A DNA stretch of 64,000 nucleotides from an uncultured Actinomycetes bacterium (GCA_963704885.1 CAVPIB010000001.1:576001-640000), one strand, 5' to 3'. Shown: positions 1,680 to 7,360, counted from the stretch's first letter. Program-made: numbers and translations. Notes: generated by a model not told the origin, from the sequence alone.

Positions 1680-2450
1680 TCAGCCGCCGATCAGCAGGCC
1701 CCTCCTTGCCCTGATCCGGCGATCGAGCCGGACGAAGACCAGGTACTCCACCATCACGCCGATCACCACGATCACGGCGACGGTCGCGACCAGCGTCGGG
1801 GCATCGTTCTGAGAACGCGCGAGCAGCTGTCCCAGCCCGGTCGCATCGATGACCGCCGTGATCAACTCGCCCGCCATGAGTGCCTTCCACGCGAAGCCCC
1901 AGGCCTGCTGAAGTCCGCCGACGTATCCGGGCAGCGCCGCCGGGAAGATCACGCCCCGGTAGAGCTGCCAACCTTCAGCCCCCAACGTCCGCCCGGCGCG
2001 CTTCAGCACCGGCGGCACCTGTCCGAAACTCGAGATCGTGGCGAGCGTGACCGAGGGGAAGGCGCCGACGATAGCCACGAAGACCACGGCTCGTTCGGTG
2101 AGCCCGAACCACACCACCGCGAGGGGGAGCCAGGCGATGAAGGGCGTTATCTGCAAGGCGACCACGAGTGGCCGGATAGACCTGCGCGCGAACTCGTTCA
2201 GTGCCAGGCTGAACCCGAGCGCCGTCCCGATCACGATCGACACCACGAACGAGAACATCAACCGGACCAGCGTCTTCACGACGGCATCCGGGATGGTGCC
2301 GTCCGAGATCCCACTCTTCAACGCGCTCCATACCGCGGCGGGCGAGGGCACCGTCTGCGGCGATGCGAACGCCGCCACGATCGACCAGACCACCAGCAGT
2401 CCGATCACGCCGGCGAGTGGCGGCCCGACCTCGCGCGCGACCCGCCTCAC
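1680..2450 (-). CDS. ABC transporter permease (nitrate/sulfonate/taurine type)
   Basis: Multiple TM helices, RAGRTLGA..PAALP (EAA-like) motif, W..LMAGEL; GTG start overlaps the ATPase stop. Confidence 0.85.
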   Translation of the reverse strand: MRRVAREVGPPLAGVIGLLVVWSIVAAFASPQTVPSPAAVWSALKSGISDGTIPDAVVKTLVRLMFSFVVSIVIGTALGFSLALNEFARRSIRPLVVALQITPFIAWLPLAVVWFGLTERAVVFVAIVGAFPSVTLATISSFGQVPPVLKRAGRTLGAEGWQLYRGVIFPAALPGYVGGLQQAWGFAWKALMAGELITAVIDATGLGQLLARSQNDAPTLVATVAVIVVIGVMVEYLVFVRLDRRIRARRGLLIGG

Positions 2451-3277
2451 GACTCGCCGCCTTTGTTGACCTCGAGCATCAGGATGTCGTGGATCTCGGA
2501 GACGACGCGAGATACGAGCGCGTCGTCCAGCTGCCGCGGCCGGGGTGCGTGGATGCGTTGTTCTTCCAAGAGCTTTCCAGGGGCGGCCGTCATGACCAGA
2601 ACTCGGTCGGCCAGCAGCGCGGCCTCCCGGACGTTGTGAGTGACGAACACGAACGTCTTGCGACCCTGGCTTTCCACCCACACGCGCTGTAGCTCGTTCT
2701 GGAGGAGCTCGCGCGCCTGTGCGTCCAGCGCGCCGAAGGGCTCGTCGCCCAAGATCACATCCGGATCGCATGCCAGTGCACGGGCCAGCGCTGTTCGCTG
2801 CCGCATCCCCGCCGAGAGCTCATGCGGCTGCGCGTCCGCGAAGTTCGTGAGATGTACGTTCTCCAGCCAGCCCATAGCGCGATCCCGCCGCTCGTCCTGA
2901 GGCACCCCGATGTGCTTGAGCGCGAACTCCACGTTGGCCACGACCGAAAGCCAGGGGAAGAGCGCGGGTTCCTGGAACAGGACGGCACGATCGGGCCCCG
3001 GTCCCACGATCGGCTCCCCGTCGAGCAGTGCCTGGCCCGACGTGGGTGCGTCCAGTCCCGCCAGGATGTTCAAGATCGTGGTCTTGCCGCAGCCCGAGGG
3101 CCCCAGCAGGCAGACGAACTCGCCCTGCAGGACGTCGAGGGTGACGTGGTCTACGGCGGTGACCGTCATGCCGGTGGTGGACGTGCGGGTCTTGACCAGA
3201 TCGCGAAGGGCGAGCTTGGGCGCCGCGGCATCCCGCGGACCGAGAGTTGCCACGGCGCCCTCGGCTCGATCGGCCAT
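2447..3277 (-). CDS. ABC transporter ATP-binding protein (NitT/TauT type)
   Basis: Walker A GPSGCGKT, FQEPALFPW, signature LSAGM, DEPFGALD, VTH; ATG at 3277. Confidence 0.9.
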   Translation of the reverse strand: MADRAEGAVATLGPRDAAAPKLALRDLVKTRTSTTGMTVTAVDHVTLDVLQGEFVCLLGPSGCGKTTILNILAGLDAPTSGQALLDGEPIVGPGPDRAVLFQEPALFPWLSVVANVEFALKHIGVPQDERRDRAMGWLENVHLTNFADAQPHELSAGMRQRTALARALACDPDVILGDEPFGALDAQARELLQNELQRVWVESQGRKTFVFVTHNVREAALLADRVLVMTAAPGKLLEEQRIHAPRPRQLDDALVSRVVSEIHDILMLEVNKGGES

Positions 3278-3465
3278 CAGCGCAACCTGAACTTCTCGGC
3301 CATCTCTATCTGCACGACCTTGCCGTCCTGGATCACCAAGACGACCGTTCCGAACTTGATCTTCTGGATGATGTCGGCGACCTTGGCCAGGACCAGGCGC
3401 TCGTCGTCGGTCAATTCGGCCAGTCGTTCCTGCGTGCTCTGCTCCGGGACGGGATCGTCGGCCAC
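3277..3465 (-). CDS. YezD/DUF2292 family small protein
   Basis: IKFGTVVLVIQDGKVVQIE..EKFRL signature, 62 aa. Confidence 0.85.
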   Translation of the reverse strand: MADDPVPEQSTQERLAELTDDERLVLAKVADIIQKIKFGTVVLVIQDGKVVQIEMAEKFRLR

Positions 3466-3474
3466 GATCGGATA

Positions 3475-4515
3475 CTAGGCCGCGATCGACTCGGTCACGA
3501 GGGGGGTCGCCTCCAGCGTGCGACGGGTCTTCGCGAAGTAGGCGATCGAGGCGACGAATCCCACCACGAACGGAGCTCCGATAGCCTGCCACCTGATCCA
3601 TGTCCTTCGACTGAGGCCGGCGGCTTCCCACTGGACCTCAGCATGATTCGCGGCGTCGATCGCGCCCCACAGCGGGAGTGCCACCAAGCCGACGACCAGC
3701 AAGACCACGCCGAGCATCTCCGTTGACAGGTTGAGCAACTTCAGCCCGGACGCGAGTAGGACGAGCACGAGCGCCGGGCGGATCACCCCGTCGGGTGCCT
3801 TGGAGGACATCCGTGCGCCCACGTAGACCCCTGGGATGGAGCCGACCAGGATCGAGGTGGTGAGCCCCGCCTCGAAGTCCCCGAAGAAGATGTGTGTAAG
3901 GGCGGCCGCTGCCACCAGCGGGACCGCTTGCACCAGGTCGGTTCCGACCAACTCTGCGCCCCGCATGCTGGGGTACAACAGCATCAGCGACACGATGATG
4001 ACCGAACCCGAGCCCACGGAGGTCATCCCGACGAGTAGGCCGCCGACGATGCCGATCAGGATGGTCGGGAGAGGCTTCACTTTCAGCGGAGGAGGCTGCG
4101 TGCCCGAGGAACGATGCTGCGCGTTGCGGCGCCCCTGGAGCCACGCCTTCGAGACCATCGCCACCGCGGCCATCATCAATGTGGCTCCCAGCAGCAGCTT
4201 GATCGTGTTCTGCACGTCCTCGCTGTTGCCCAAGCTCCGCAGGATGAAGACACCAGACGCGGCGGCCGGGATCGAGCCGATAGCCAGCCAAAGAACCAGT
4301 TCCCAGCGGACGGTCTTGCGCCGGATGTGCACGCCGCTGCCGACCGGCTTCATGATCATGGCGGCGACCAGGTCGCTGGACACCGCCGCGCTGGGCGGGA
4401 TCCCGAAAACCAAGACGAGGATCGGGGTCATGAGCGCCCCGCCGCCCATGCCGGTCAGCCCGACGGTGAATCCGACGAGCAGCGCGGCGAACGTGACATA
4501 GAGGTCGATGTCCAT
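3475..4515 (-). CDS. TauE/SafE sulfite exporter family protein
   Basis: VGLTGMGGGALMTP, VGMTSVGSGS, LVGTDL.QAVPL motifs; ATG at 4515. Confidence 0.9.
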   Translation of the reverse strand: MDIDLYVTFAALLVGFTVGLTGMGGGALMTPILVLVFGIPPSAAVSSDLVAAMIMKPVGSGVHIRRKTVRWELVLWLAIGSIPAAASGVFILRSLGNSEDVQNTIKLLLGATLMMAAVAMVSKAWLQGRRNAQHRSSGTQPPPLKVKPLPTILIGIVGGLLVGMTSVGSGSVIIVSLMLLYPSMRGAELVGTDLVQAVPLVAAAALTHIFFGDFEAGLTTSILVGSIPGVYVGARMSSKAPDGVIRPALVLVLLASGLKLLNLSTEMLGVVLLVVGLVALPLWGAIDAANHAEVQWEAAGLSRRTWIRWQAIGAPFVVGFVASIAYFAKTRRTLEATPLVTESIAA

Positions 4516-4542
4516 CTGGTCTTCCCTGTGCTTCCCAAGGAA

Positions 4543-4618
4543 CAACAAAGGCCACGGCGAAGAAAGAGGGTTCCGCCGCGGCCTCCAGTCGTCTGGTCAG
4601 CTGCTTCAGGGGATGCTA
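4543..4618 (-). promoter_or_regulatory. -10 promoter plus leader attenuator (conserved 28-nt motif and intrinsic terminator), copy 1
   Basis: Minus strand TAGCAT (4613-4618), then GCAGCTGACCAGACGACTGGAGGCCGCG (4577-4604), hairpin AGGCCGCGGCG/CGCCGTGGCCT, then TTGTTGTT. Confidence 0.75.
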
Positions 4619-4692
4619 GCTGCGGCGATGGGGGGCGTCAATCAGCCGGATGATGCGGGACCTTCGCCCCGGATCAATCGTCCGAACGGCGG

Positions 4693-5889
4693 CTATGCGG
4701 TGTGCGTTCCGAACAGGAGTCCCGAGAGTAGGAACGTGATCGGGAGCAGGAACAGCGTGCCGACGAAGAACGCCAAGCGACGGTTCGAGGCGACCAGGTA
4801 GTCGTCCAAGCCGAGCACCGCCGTCTTCACTGGTCGATACACGAAGGCGAGGATGATCAGGGAGACGAGCGTGACCCCGATCGCCTCTGCAAGCACGATC
4901 TGTCCTGCGATGGGGGTGTTCTGCAACATCGCCACCACCAGGGTGTCGGCGAGAGTGGTGATGTTCGCGCCCATGATGTAGGGGAGGGCCTCCTCGCGCT
5001 TCACGTAGCCCTTGGCCGCAAGCGGCACCAACACGGTGAGTGCCACAGACACAGATAGCGTGAGGAACGCCACGAGGCATCCCAGGCCGAACATGGTCCA
5101 CGGGTGCTTCAACCACTTCGCGTGGTTGGAGACCGCGGTCCCTGTGCTGAGGTTCGGCAGAACGCGATCGAGGAGGCTGAACGAGACCAAGATCACGCCG
5201 AGACCGACAAGGAACAGCGCCCAGCCAGGCAGGTTGACCGAGGCCGCGTCGACGAGTGGGCCCCAGAGCGCGCCCAACAGGGCCTCCATCTTCGCGGAGG
5301 CGTGCCAGTTCATCCCGTCCAGCAGGCCGCCGCGCAGGATCGCGTAGCCGATGAGCATGCCGGGGATGTACACGATCGCGGTCATGGTCATCGCCTGGAT
5401 GCCGATCCCGATCGACTCTCCGCGATCCCGGCTCCGGTTCCTCATGGCGTAGAGGAAGCCGGTCATCAGCACGATGAAGGACGCGCCCAGCCGCGAGCCG
5501 GAGAGCATGGTGAACGTCTGGAGCTTGGTGAGCGTGCCGGCGCCGAACAAGCTGATGGCGGTCGCGGCGACCGGCGAGCCCGACAGCACGAAGTAGGCCC
5601 CCAGCCAACCCGTGCCCAGCGTGGAGACGCCGTTCGCGAACGGGAACTGACCCTTGATCTGCGGCCCCACAGCAGTGGCGCCGGCCTTCATCAACTGGAT
5701 CGCCAGGATGAACAGGAAGATCGCCGGTAGGAACAACGCGAGCTTCTTGATGACGTACCACGCGCCGCGCTCAACGACCTCAACGGTGTGGTGGTCGACC
5801 AAGTGGTGCTCGCTCGGGTGGTGGTCGCCCAGCCCAGGAACCAGGACGAGCTCATCCGTGAGCTCGGCGCGGCTCTGAACCTCTTCCAT
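4693..5889 (-). CDS. Na/Pi-cotransporter-like membrane protein
   Basis: Two repeats (LSGSPVAA..SGSRLGAS; TLSVSVAL..YIMGANITTL) typical of the Na/Pi cotransporter family; GGGAGG RBS before ATG 5889; His-rich N-terminus. Confidence 0.7.
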   Translation of the reverse strand: MEEVQSRAELTDELVLVPGLGDHHPSEHHLVDHHTVEVVERGAWYVIKKLALFLPAIFLFILAIQLMKAGATAVGPQIKGQFPFANGVSTLGTGWLGAYFVLSGSPVAATAISLFGAGTLTKLQTFTMLSGSRLGASFIVLMTGFLYAMRNRSRDRGESIGIGIQAMTMTAIVYIPGMLIGYAILRGGLLDGMNWHASAKMEALLGALWGPLVDAASVNLPGWALFLVGLGVILVSFSLLDRVLPNLSTGTAVSNHAKWLKHPWTMFGLGCLVAFLTLSVSVALTVLVPLAAKGYVKREEALPYIMGANITTLADTLVVAMLQNTPIAGQIVLAEAIGVTLVSLIILAFVYRPVKTAVLGLDDYLVASNRRLAFFVGTLFLLPITFLLSGLLFGTHTA

Positions 5890-5906
5890 GCGATCCTCCC
5901 TTGGCA

Positions 5907-5974
5907 ACGGAAAAGGCCGCGGCGCAAGATGCGTCGCGGCCTCCAGTCGTCTGGTCAGCTGCCGGGGCACCGTA
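5907..5974 (-). promoter_or_regulatory. -10 promoter plus leader attenuator (conserved 28-nt motif and intrinsic terminator), copy 2
   Basis: Minus strand TGgTACGGT (-10 at 5969-5974), identical 28-mer at 5935-5962, hairpin AGGCCGCGACGC/GCGCCGCGGCCT, then TTTCCGTT. Confidence 0.75.
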
Positions 5975-6085
5975 CCAACCGGTCTTCCGAAGCGTCAAGG
6001 ACCGAAGGGCTAGCTTCGGCTCCCGCCGTTCGGCCTATCCCACACCGGCCGTGCGGTCAATGCGGTCCTCTAGACTGTGGGCGCC

Positions 6086-7360
6086 ATGCCGGCCTCGATC
6101 GTGCTCGGGACGCAGTGGGGGGACGAGGGCAAGGGCAAGGCGGTCGACTACCTGGCGGATCGGATGGACTTCGTGGTCCGCTATCAAGGCGGCAACAACG
6201 CGGGCCACACCGTGATCGCCGAGGGACGGCTGCTGAAGCTCCAGCTGATCCCCTCGGGCATCCTCTACGACCACATCACGTCGGTGATCGCCGACGGGGT
6301 GGTGGTGGACCCGCGCCACCTGATCAAAGAGATGGCGTCGCTCCGCGAGCTGGGCATCGACGTCTCCCGGCTGGTCGTGTCCGGCAACGCTCACATGATC
6401 ATGCCGTACCACTTGGAGTTGGAGAAGGTGACAGAGCGGTTCCTGGGCAAGAACGCGCTCGGCACCACCAAGCGAGGGATCGGCCCGGCCTATGGCGACA
6501 AGGCCGCGCGCATCGGCCTGCGCATCCAGGACCTGTTCGACGCGAAGATCTTCCGCGAGAAGCTCGACGTGGTCCTGCGGGAGAAGAACCTGATCCTCAC
6601 GAAGATCTACAACCGATTGCCGCTCGACGCCGACCTGATCGTCGAGGAGTACATGGAACTGGCATCGCAGCTGGAGCCGCACGTCGCCGACACCGGGGCG
6701 CTCCTGCATCACGGCTTGCGCGACGGCAAGCACGTGATGCTCGAGGGCGCGCAGGGCACCCTGCTCGACCTGGATCACGGGACGTATCCGTTCGTGACGT
6801 CGTCGAACCCCGTTGCCGGCTACGCCCTCGCGTCCGCGGGCATCGGTCCACTCGAGGTGGACCGAGTGATCGGGATCGTGAAGGCCTATGTCACCCGCGT
6901 GGGCGCTGGGCCGTTCCCGACCGAGGACCTCGGCGTCGTGGGCGAGCGGTTGGGTGTGAGAGGAAAGGAGTTCGGGACCGTCACCGGCCGCAAGCGCCGG
7001 TGCGGCTGGTTCGACGCTGTGCTGGCACGCTACGCGGCTCGGCTGAACGGCCTGACCGAGCAGTTCGTGACCAAGCTCGACGTGCTCTCGGGATTCGAGA
7101 AGGTGAAGATCTGCACCGGGTACCGAGCCGACGGCGAACTCTATGAGGACTTCCCGCCGCACCAATCCCTATTCCACAAGGCCGAGCCCGTGTTCGAGGA
7201 GCTCGACGGGTGGATGGAGGAGATCGACGAAGCGAAGACGTTCGAAGACCTGCCTAAACAGGCGCGCGCGTATGTGCAGCGCATGGCCGAACTGGTGAGC
7301 GTCCCGGTGTCGGTCGTTTCGATCGGACCCGCGCGCGAGCAGAGCTTGCCGGTCGGATGA
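6086..7360 (+). CDS. purA: adenylosuccinate synthetase
   Basis: QWGDEGKGK, GGNNAGHT, EGAQG..LD..HGTYPFVTSS, G.EFGTVTGRKRRCGW. Confidence 0.97.
   Translation: MPASIVLGTQWGDEGKGKAVDYLADRMDFVVRYQGGNNAGHTVIAEGRLLKLQLIPSGILYDHITSVIADGVVVDPRHLIKEMASLRELGIDVSRLVVSGNAHMIMPYHLELEKVTERFLGKNALGTTKRGIGPAYGDKAARIGLRIQDLFDAKIFREKLDVVLREKNLILTKIYNRLPLDADLIVEEYMELASQLEPHVADTGALLHHGLRDGKHVMLEGAQGTLLDLDHGTYPFVTSSNPVAGYALASAGIGPLEVDRVIGIVKAYVTRVGAGPFPTEDLGVVGERLGVRGKEFGTVTGRKRRCGWFDAVLARYAARLNGLTEQFVTKLDVLSGFEKVKICTGYRADGELYEDFPPHQSLFHKAEPVFEELDGWMEEIDEAKTFEDLPKQARAYVQRMAELVSVPVSVVSIGPAREQSLPVG

Follow-up and report, generated by a model that had tools for sequence, protein, structure and literature searches.

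A 64,000-nt stretch of DNA (hereafter the window) from an uncultured Actinomycetes bacterium (GCA_963704885.1 CAVPIB010000001.1:576001-640000) carries two copies of a short leader element in front of the genes of a sulfur-transport cluster, and this element is very probably an RNA attenuator for sulfur genes. On the strength of sequence comparison, it is a widespread RNA family that occurs in at least five phyla and is absent from Rfam. The small protein YezD/OscA (DUF2292, PF10055), which is encoded in the operon behind one of the two copies, is the somewhat favoured candidate for the reader of the hairpin, which would then act under sulfur starvation as a switch of antitermination and translation that depends on this protein. 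The broader proposal that YezD/OscA proteins constitute an unrecognised family of small, dimeric, sequence-specific RNA-binding regulators that clamp GA/A-loop hairpins in leaders has, in our estimate, about an even chance of being right; if true, this family acts in Actinomycetota, Desulfuromonadales-like bacteria, Gammaproteobacteria, Planctomycetota and others.

Exactly two copies of the 28-mer GCAGCTGACCAGACGACTGGAGGCCGCG were found in the window, with 0 mismatches; both are on the minus strand, copy A at 4577-4604 and copy B at 5935-5962, and no match arose in any of 100 shuffles of the window. These are its sole copies in the 3.0-Mb, 97%-complete genome, in which a covariance model (R1) built from 34 copies of the element scored them at 50.4 (B) and 50.0 (A) bits, the next match reaching 24.1 bits. 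An earlier prediction made from the sequence of the window (the original prediction) had reported an identical 28-mer at both positions and had treated it as a duplicated element; the exact match is confirmed and both copies are real, but they are members of a widespread family rather than merely a local duplication. Copy A is preceded by a sigma-70-like promoter site (4613-4641, minus strand; TTGACG-17-TAGCAT, 9 of 12 matches) ending 8 nt before it, one site having been found by the scanner against 0.3 expected. The corresponding site of copy B (5969-5998, minus strand) was recognised by eye only and consists of TTGACG (5998-5993), an 18-nt spacer and TACGGT (5974-5969), ending 6 nt before the 28-mer; it is weaker than that of copy A and was not reported by the scanner. 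The -10 box that had been placed 6-8 nt upstream of the 28-mer is thus supported by the scanner for copy A (8 nt) and by eye for copy B (6 nt).

Both copies can form the same antiterminator-type hairpin. In copy B (5936-5962, minus strand) it consists of an outer helix (P0) that contains one A.C mismatch, a GA/A internal loop, an inner helix (P1, CCAG/CUGG) and the loop ACGA, and copy A (4578-4604, minus strand; R1 50.0 bits) is built alike. The isolated 29-nt motif was folded by RNAfold as the bulged hairpin ..((.(((..((((....)))).))).)), with -10.2 (B) and -10.4 (A) kcal/mol, and this hairpin uses GGCCGC, which is most of the left arm of a terminator-like stem-loop. Stem-loop B (5911-5942, with the stem-loop proper at 5914-5942; minus strand) has 8+4 bp followed by UUUU, and AGGCCGCG, its left arm, shares bases with the hairpin's 3' strand; stem-loop A (4543-4584, stem-loop proper 4549-4584; minus strand) has 13 bp, a 10-nt loop and the tail UUUGUUG. 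Taken alone, stem-loop B folded at -17.2 kcal/mol (z -4.0) and stem-loop A at -19.7 kcal/mol (z -4.5), and the full leaders, at -26.1 (B) and -29.1 (A) kcal/mol (z -2.9 and -3.3), both folded as the CCAG/CUGG hairpin directly followed by a long GC-rich stem-loop. The left arms begin within the 28-mer, while the loops and inner stems differ between the copies. The RNAfold results for both leaders bear out two further points of the original prediction, namely that the terminator loops and inner stems differ and that a bulged hairpin sequesters the first terminator bases, the latter being supported also by pairing and covariation in relatives.

The architecture of the element comprises P0, the GA/A internal loop, P1 (CCRG/CYGG) and an A-rich apical loop, and in the window P0 is GCU/GGC, extendable to GCAGCU/GGCCGC. 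Among 65 distinct R1 matches, 452 of 452 cells pair in P0 (3 bp) and P1 (4 bp), against 95.7% in shuffles (0 of 500 reached 100%) and at most 57% with slid partners. The P0 pair 8-29 is C-G in 48 matches, U.G in 10 and U-A in 6, and never C-A; the variable P1 pair is A-U in 40, G-C in 24 and G.U in one, and four of the helix pairs are invariant. A second alignment (A6) contained 98 distinct 27-mers from 180 loci, which were chosen on GA, a 4-bp CCRG/CYGG hairpin and A; no condition was set on the flanks because circularity had to be avoided. At least three consecutive P0 pairs were formed in 81 of these 98, compared with about 5% expected for random flanks by our own arithmetic, and the three inner P0 pairs were formed in 92, 89 and 90 of 98, each with four to five pair types. 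Among the P0 sequences observed are GCU/GGC, GUU/GAC, GCC/GGC, AUC/GAU, ACU/AGU, GCCC/GGGC and GAGCU/GGUUC. The covariation score was 0.320, compared with 0.182 in shuffles (0 of 500 reached the observed value) and at most 0.146 with slid partners. In A6 there is no variation in the GA, the 3' A or three of the P1 pairs, as the choice of hairpins fixed these columns, and the pair neighbouring the GA/A loop is mostly U.G (68 of 98).

Tolerance of G.U together with free covariation of P0 argues for an RNA rather than a DNA operator. That the conserved sequence is an operator for a repressor, with an incidental stem-loop, would suit its start 9-11 nt after a -10-like box in many loci, a classic repressor position, and the partly palindromic centre CCAG-N4-CTGG. 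This explanation is nevertheless very improbable, since G.U but never C-A at pair 8-29 and a freely covarying outer helix would be meaningless for double-stranded DNA, the flanks are asymmetric, terminator arms are fused to the element in 77 or more of 106 copies, and the element also lies 40-130 nt past yezD stops, far from promoter-like sites.

The expression platforms of 106 distinct copies were compared. In 77, an automatic classification recognised a stem-loop that starts in the 3' end of the motif and is followed by a T run, and about seven more were recognised by eye, bringing the share with such an overlap to about 80%. About 20 of the 106 have no T run, precede sulfate-binding-protein genes and carry the variant GUUGACC...GGAGRCCGA, for which RNAalifold gave a 6-bp P0. 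In this second leader type, the 5' half of the hairpin (CUUUCGGUUGACC) has its complement in GGUCGAUCGAAAG, which immediately precedes the Shine-Dalgarno sequence, and 88.9% of cells are paired in the alternative 13-bp helix against at most 57% with slid partners. We infer that both platforms share one logic, in which the gene is on when the hairpin is held. A -35/-10-like site lies within 70 nt upstream of 43 of the 106 copies, compared with 0 of 106 control windows, and its -10-like box usually ends 9-11 nt before the motif, which places the hairpin at the very 5' end of the transcript in those cases.

Two observations speak against the attenuator. A simple terminator scan flagged neither stem-loop of the window, whose U tracts are short (UUUUCCG and UUUGUUG), and no compensatory changes were found in the alternative helix of the second leader type. 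Judged as intrinsic terminators, the window structures have strong stems (-17.2 and -19.7 kcal/mol) and tails weak in U, and many relatives have 5-8 U; the GC-rich terminator with a U-rich tail that had been proposed for both copies stands as a stem-loop sharing the 3' end of the 28-mer, while the U-rich tail holds less well. The weak U tracts would fit a 5' stabilising hairpin with leaky terminators or decay barriers acting unconditionally, so that no switch exists. Such an arrangement hardly seems probable, as P0 and the terminator base overlap systematically, and as the element occurs with sulfur genes only and is conserved in sequence across at least five phyla.

The element was then followed through other genomes. 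With at most three mismatches, the 28-mer was present in 21 of 61 related genomes, including compensatory CCGG...CCGG variants, and the layout was constant, with a promoter-like site, the motif, a variable stem-loop, a T run, a ribosome-binding site and a gene in this order. A pattern scan of contigs from one genome per species gave at least 120 stretches, of which only intergenic, hairpin-bearing ones were retained; among the matches listed, most were chance occurrences within genes of Streptomyces and others. Intergenic copies followed by terminators were found in metagenome-assembled genomes (MAGs) of Pelobacter, Desulfuromonadales, Methylobacter, Methylomirabilia and Planctomycetaceae, and R1 found 9, 6, 2, 1 and 1 copies in five of these genomes from other phyla. 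A loose pattern (GCTGACCNGNNNNCNGGAGGCC, one mismatch) matched 248 of 294 genomes in the window's order; its counts were not used because a reversed-pattern control also matched many, and it served only to spot the GUUGACC variant. Genomes flagged as unpublished (G008, G034, G041, G049, G059, G062, G063, G066, G082, G086, G128, G129, G130, G142, G200, G218, G219, G242, G285, G292, G375, G822, G924 and G1078) are included in the counts for the 61-, 294-, 151- and 123-genome sets and in the search of gammaproteobacterial loci, and loci from unpublished genomes (L003, L011, L032, L216, L222, L228, L240, L241, L286, L290 and L293) supply rows in alignments A1-A6.

In Rfam searches, window positions 3000-6500 gave five weak, unrelated matches at E <= 10 and no described family for the element; the only match touching it was mir-3926, on the opposite strand, with 18.4 bits against a gathering score of 82. 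Twelve related loci gave, at E <= 1, two tRNAs and one weak match over a tRNA, and nothing for the element. The element had been called uncharacterised, and this agrees with the lack of a match to any Rfam family (SAM-I to -VI, SAM/SAH, mini-ykkC, thiS and others). The 'dauA' motif described in Streptomyces (Narunsky 2024, PMC11109978) has three stems and is a different element. Weak R1 matches with E of 0.005-0.1 (L176, L217-L222) lie in coding sequence or other elements and were not counted; one of them, at 30.5 bits just before a pyrR-like gene (L217, G377:C76), is probably a PyrR binding loop with superficial likeness. Tandem hairpins, two and sometimes three at distances of 50-105 nt in one leader, were observed in L003, L031, L216, L235, L236, L237, L241, L256 and L247, and in L005 and L018 the full motif is closely preceded by a partial copy (GCTGACCAGAC). 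Two tRNA genes (L056, 5235-5445, plus strand) lie about 1 kb from a variant-2 motif.

The first genes after the motif were clustered, and the largest clusters encode sulfate substrate-binding proteins (SBP, 17), Na/Pi-like proteins (11), TauE (8) and SsuA-like binding proteins (6), followed by an ABC ATPase behind a small open reading frame (ORF, 4), NifB-like (3), NifH-like (3), CysK (2) and variant radical-SAM (2) proteins and singletons. Greedy ORF calling picks wrong frames in some high-GC loci, and three TauE loci were re-framed by eye. NCBIfam matches above cut-off were obtained for sulfate SBP, the SsuA family, CysJ, CysK and OAH/OAS sulfhydrylase (homocysteine synthase), and further first genes were MetQ-like or were NifH/NifB-like under the nitrogenase cut-offs. 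These identities point to a sulfur-acquisition regulon in every phylum examined, so that the predicted link with sulfur genes extends to several phyla in both the gene clusters and NCBIfam.

In Desulfuromonadales-like genomes, NifH/NifB paralogues stand behind the sulfur hairpin and next to yezD (nifH-like in L190/L152, L201 and L205; nifB-like in L186, L192 and L195; variant radical SAM in L194 and L197), and in L210 yezD directly precedes a NifH-like gene with no R1 match between them. Methylthio-alkane reductase is a nitrogenase-like system for sulfur salvage, and the NifH/NifB-like genes behind the hairpin may belong to a system of this kind; in these genomes they are flagged as members of the sulfur regulon. 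In Gammaproteobacteria (L274-L278, L284-L293), the product of the gene that follows yezD and the hairpin often has a signal peptide and, near its N-terminus, a coiled-coil-like repeat. Its counterpart in Planctomycetaceae scores as Porin_O_P, which suggests an anion-selective porin in the sulfur regulon.

The presence of the motif was closely associated with that of yezD. PF10055 was present in five of five motif-bearing genomes of other phyla, and in four loci of other phyla yezD ends about 40-50 nt before the motif. Among 151 genomes of the window's phylum, strong motif matches occurred in six, and these coincide exactly with the six members that the window's order has with PF10055; the five order members without the motif also lacked PF10055, and two genomes of family f9 have PF10055 without an R1 match. 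In these two genomes (L231, L232) a hairpin of the motif type missed by R1 lies 41-60 nt after the yezD stop; upstream of yezD there is also a promoter-like TTGACA and, behind it, a repeat of CACTCC boxes that may be a DNA operator. Among 123 genomes of the window's order (>=90% complete), the motif was found in 71, PF10055 in 81 and both in 71, and six of the seven PF10055-only genomes viewed (out of ten) carry a 25-29-bit motif beside yezD that was lost to the genome-wide filters. The order of G295 (101 genomes) gave the motif in 22, PF10055 in 45 and both in 21, and that of G297 (101 genomes) gave 3, 36 and 3. Across these order samples, the motif occurred without PF10055 in only one of 96 motif genomes.

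The arrangement of the two was also informative. In the window's order, for 87 of 110 yezD matches the same contig carries a motif no more than 6 kb away; the motif is upstream on the same strand for 61 of these 87, which places yezD inside the controlled operon as in the window, whereas it is 46-493 nt downstream of yezD in 19 and on the opposite strand in 7. Hairpins with diverged P0 and the same architecture follow yezD in five of seven Methylococcales-like loci (no R1 match) and, by pattern, follow yezD/oscA in eight of nine gammaproteobacterial loci; after the one true OscA equivalog, GCCC-GA-CUGG-ACCA-CCGG-A-GGGC was found by eye upstream of an sbp-like gene. The cargo changes among phyla (porin, sbp, nifH-like, tauE-ABC) while the pair of yezD and hairpin stays, as one would expect of a regulator and its site. 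A covariance model with genome scans had been suggested as a check on the co-occurrence of motif and YezD, and both presence/absence and adjacency agree with it. The antitermination switch with YezD as its regulator thus stands with respect to the RNA element and its linkage to sulfur genes and yezD, and the binding by YezD is proposed from genomics only.

A very small riboswitch, in which the hairpin, perhaps with the terminator base, binds a metabolite or ion reporting sulfur status and YezD is only a constant member of the regulon, is unlikely in our view, although several observations suit it: one conserved element is shared by two expression platforms, tandem copies occur (for example in L003, L216, L235, L236 and L256), the unpaired GA/A is invariant with an adjoining pair that is mostly U.G (68 of 98), up to nine element sites occur per genome, far from yezD, and aptamers embedded in terminators, such as the HMP-PP riboswitch, reportedly exist. 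The conserved part, however, measures just about 21-27 nt, its internal loop has 3 nt and its apical loop varies, and three of four P1 pairs are invariant in sequence across phyla, more like protein recognition than a ligand pocket. A riboswitch would also leave unexplained that just one of 96 motif genomes is without PF10055, and that the hairpin is frequently directly preceded by yezD, which there lies outside the unit under attenuation.

Another trans-acting reader, such as a different RNA-binding protein, a small RNA or the ribosome acting through the contained GGAGG, with YezD as cargo, is rather improbable. Rrf2-family regulators and cysK occur in two of two annotated non-actinobacterial loci: a Desulfuromonadales-like locus (L280, G295:C84) has the order Rrf2-cysK-yezD-hairpin/terminator-nifH-like with divergent cysA and PAPS-reductase-family genes, and a Planctomycetaceae locus (L282, G298:C132) has hairpin-porin-?-Rrf2-sulfate SBP-yezD. 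Rrf2 proteins bind DNA, however, and no other gene is constant beside the hairpin across phyla. The Shine-Dalgarno-like GGAGG in the 3' strand would provide a site for the ribosome, but it is not universal, being replaced by GGAGAC, GGAAGC and GGAAGU variants.

The proposal for YezD concerns a small protein (62 aa in the window) whose AF2 model consists of one helix and a beta-hairpin (pLDDT 84.5). Against NF033785 ('sulfur starvation response protein OscA'), the window protein scored 33.8 bits with a cut-off of 85, which makes it a relative and not an equivalog. A homodimer prediction, with a score of 0.43 against 0.00 for the best control, passed a mark that 20 of 30 proteins solved as pairs had attained, as had one of 23 solved as single chains; in the dimer runs contacts agreed by at least 94% with pLDDT of at least 68, and the strands of residues 38-46 were modelled as pairing antiparallel. 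The predicted dimer does not demonstrate RNA binding. A search of the ESM Atlas with YezD gave DUF2292 clusters only and no functional lead. According to passages that cite Viti et al. 2009, among them passages in PMC2996968, inactivation of oscA makes Pseudomonas corrugata Cr(VI)-sensitive, the oscA-sbp unit is strongly induced, and the function of the OscA protein is described as unknown. The window protein belongs to PF10055 as do OscA of P. corrugata and YezD of B. subtilis, and the oscA-sbp order matches the yezD-hairpin-sbp order seen here. The literature searched contained no molecular function or RNA partner for OscA/YezD, bacterial papers citing yezD in passing, and as far as these searches show an RNA partner is first proposed here.

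Several results weigh against YezD as the reader. The protein has no recognised RNA-binding domain, is net acidic as a whole by our own count, and gave no relative in the Protein Data Bank (PDB) by sequence and no Foldseek PDB match at E <= 0.001. The overlap of the yezD stop with the start of the ABC ATPase gene would also fit a transporter accessory protein. In a passage of a published study, yezD of B. subtilis is repressed by CymR and Spx (PMC3479203), and control by CymR is at the DNA level. PF10055 is far commoner than R1 matches in the other orders, where 24 of 45 and 33 of 36 carriers had no match at the thresholds used, and one genome in the order of G295 (G631) has the motif, between cysK-like and sulfite-reductase-like genes, without a PF10055 match. 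In the window's order, 93 of 110 motif matches lie within 6 kb of a yezD; given this physical clustering, co-occurrence there could reflect the inheritance of one cluster as a unit, in which YezD is cargo.

The mechanism proposed for YezD as reader starts from the 3' strand of P0, which doubles as the terminator base, so that the hairpin and the full terminator are mutually exclusive. Unaided, the much stronger terminator would win and transcription would end ahead of the sulfur-transport genes. Clamping of the hairpin by a trans-acting factor would deprive the terminator of its base, thereby allowing RNA polymerase to read through; in the second leader type, found before sulfate-binding-protein genes in relatives, clamping would free the ribosome-binding site and Shine-Dalgarno region. 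The clamping factor would most likely be YezD/OscA, a product of the same operon that would act as a dimer under sulfur shortage, and the signal would be either the abundance of YezD, set by an upstream Rrf2/CymR-type regulator, or a ligand. We infer all three steps, namely that YezD binds the RNA, that binding turns the genes on and that sulfur status reaches YezD by such a route; that a CymR-like Rrf2 protein sets the level of YezD, which then opens the leaders, is speculation. If true, clamping by YezD switches on sulfur scavenging by antitermination or by a freed ribosome-binding site.

Among known systems, the RAT elements read by BglG/LicT/SacY (CAT-PRD) proteins are similar in being a short internal-loop hairpin upstream of and overlapping the 5' arm of a terminator, and in that protein binding would stabilise the hairpin and cause read-through, as proposed here. 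Both the RNA sequence and the layout of the loops are different, the genes here are those of sulfur transporters and not of sugar PTS, and the candidate reader is a 62-aa helix and beta-hairpin protein and not a CAT-PRD protein. CAT_RBD (PF03123) had no match in the 97%-complete genome, while the control matched four of 14 known genomes. The RAT geometry that had been claimed consequently holds for the overlap of hairpin and terminator (RNAfold; 77 of 106 copies) and fails for membership of the BglG/LicT type. A parallel in gene order is HutP of the B. subtilis hut operon, where a small regulator gene comes first and its product binds the following terminator region, thereby allowing transcription of the structural genes. 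The order of yezD, hairpin/terminator and cargo resembles it in 19 of 110 yezD matches in the window's order and in Desulfuromonadales-like and gammaproteobacterial loci. HutP is a 148-aa hexamer that reads UAG repeats and needs histidine; it is unrelated to YezD, which has no known ligand.

ANTAR systems share protein-dependent antitermination at several leaders of one regulon with a target overlapping the terminator, and in a passage describing them the target consists of two tandem 3-bp stems with hexaloops bearing A1 and G4 (PMC3369931). The element here has a single hairpin, whose internal loop is GA/A and whose apical loop measures 4-5 nt, so that it was rejected as an ANTAR target on RNA architecture. 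Control of the nifH-like and nifB-like contexts by ANTAR/GnfR was likewise rejected, as both the ANTAR dual hexaloops and the GnfR site in Geobacter (CAGGCAANGGCGCC), which is unrelated to the element, differ from the motif. The ANTAR domain (PF03861) had no match in the genome, and this search was uninformative because the control likewise matched none of 14 known genomes. The PyrR binding loop is similarly a small, purine-rich, protein-read hairpin in attenuators, with another consensus, regulon and protein. The HMP-PP (thiS) riboswitch is said to be a terminator-embedded aptamer and an off switch for thiamin genes upon ligand binding; the element resembles it as a very small conserved element merged with a terminator stem, whereas it has no Rfam match and another gene context. 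The element thus works like a RAT or HutP-type protein-dependent antiterminator outside the BglG/LicT, ANTAR and Rfam families; it represents a new RNA motif and, if the proposed reading holds, a new RNA-binding protein family.

To our knowledge, sulfur-starvation control in bacteria has been described almost wholly through DNA-binding regulators (CysB, CymR, SsuR), and in a 2025 review of RNA-binding antiterminators the words sulfur, sulfate and cysteine never occur in the text. DUF2292/OscA/YezD, known only as induced by sulfur starvation with chromate sensitivity on its loss, gains a testable molecular role. If the proposal is true, the OscA phenotype is explained as a failed sulfur-starvation response and a post-initiation layer is added to sulfur regulation. 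For a binding test, the molecules are now defined exactly, with an RNA of 27 nt and a protein of about 60 aa.

The genes of the window cluster lie on the minus strand, and the original gene calls (a Na/Pi-like gene and a tauE-yezD-ABC operon) were upheld by Pfam. The first gene after copy B (4693-5889) encodes a Na/Pi-cotransporter-like membrane protein of 398 aa, whose PF02690 score of 30.1 bits is barely over the cut-off of 29.1 and for which NCBIfam gave weak Na/Pi matches only. Copy A is followed by a TauE/SafE-family anion transporter of 346 aa (3475-4515; PF01925, 153.5 bits), then by yezD (3277-3465; 62 aa; PF10055, 57.5 bits, cut-off 22), whose stop codon overlaps the ATG of an ABC transporter ATPase gene of the nitrate/sulfonate/taurine type (2447-3277; PF00005). 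The top NCBIfam model for this ATPase is SaoA (236.9 bits, under its cut-off), and taurine and sulfonate ATPase models match too. The last gene encodes an ABC permease (TauC/SsuC/SaoP-like; 1680-2450; PF00528, BPD_transp_1). Its listed ORF extends to 2771, and the true start is probably near 2450 because the long ORF (1680-2771) overlaps the ATPase gene by about 320 nt; NCBIfam alignments begin at residues 103-122 of the long ORF. Beside the tauE-yezD-ABC operon, the examined part of the window showed no gene for a substrate-binding protein. On the plus strand, purA (6077-7360) is divergent from the Na/Pi-like gene, and a DUF2090 protein (535-1452; PF09863, 116.8 bits), unrelated to the leader element, is encoded downstream of the ABC permease on the opposite strand.

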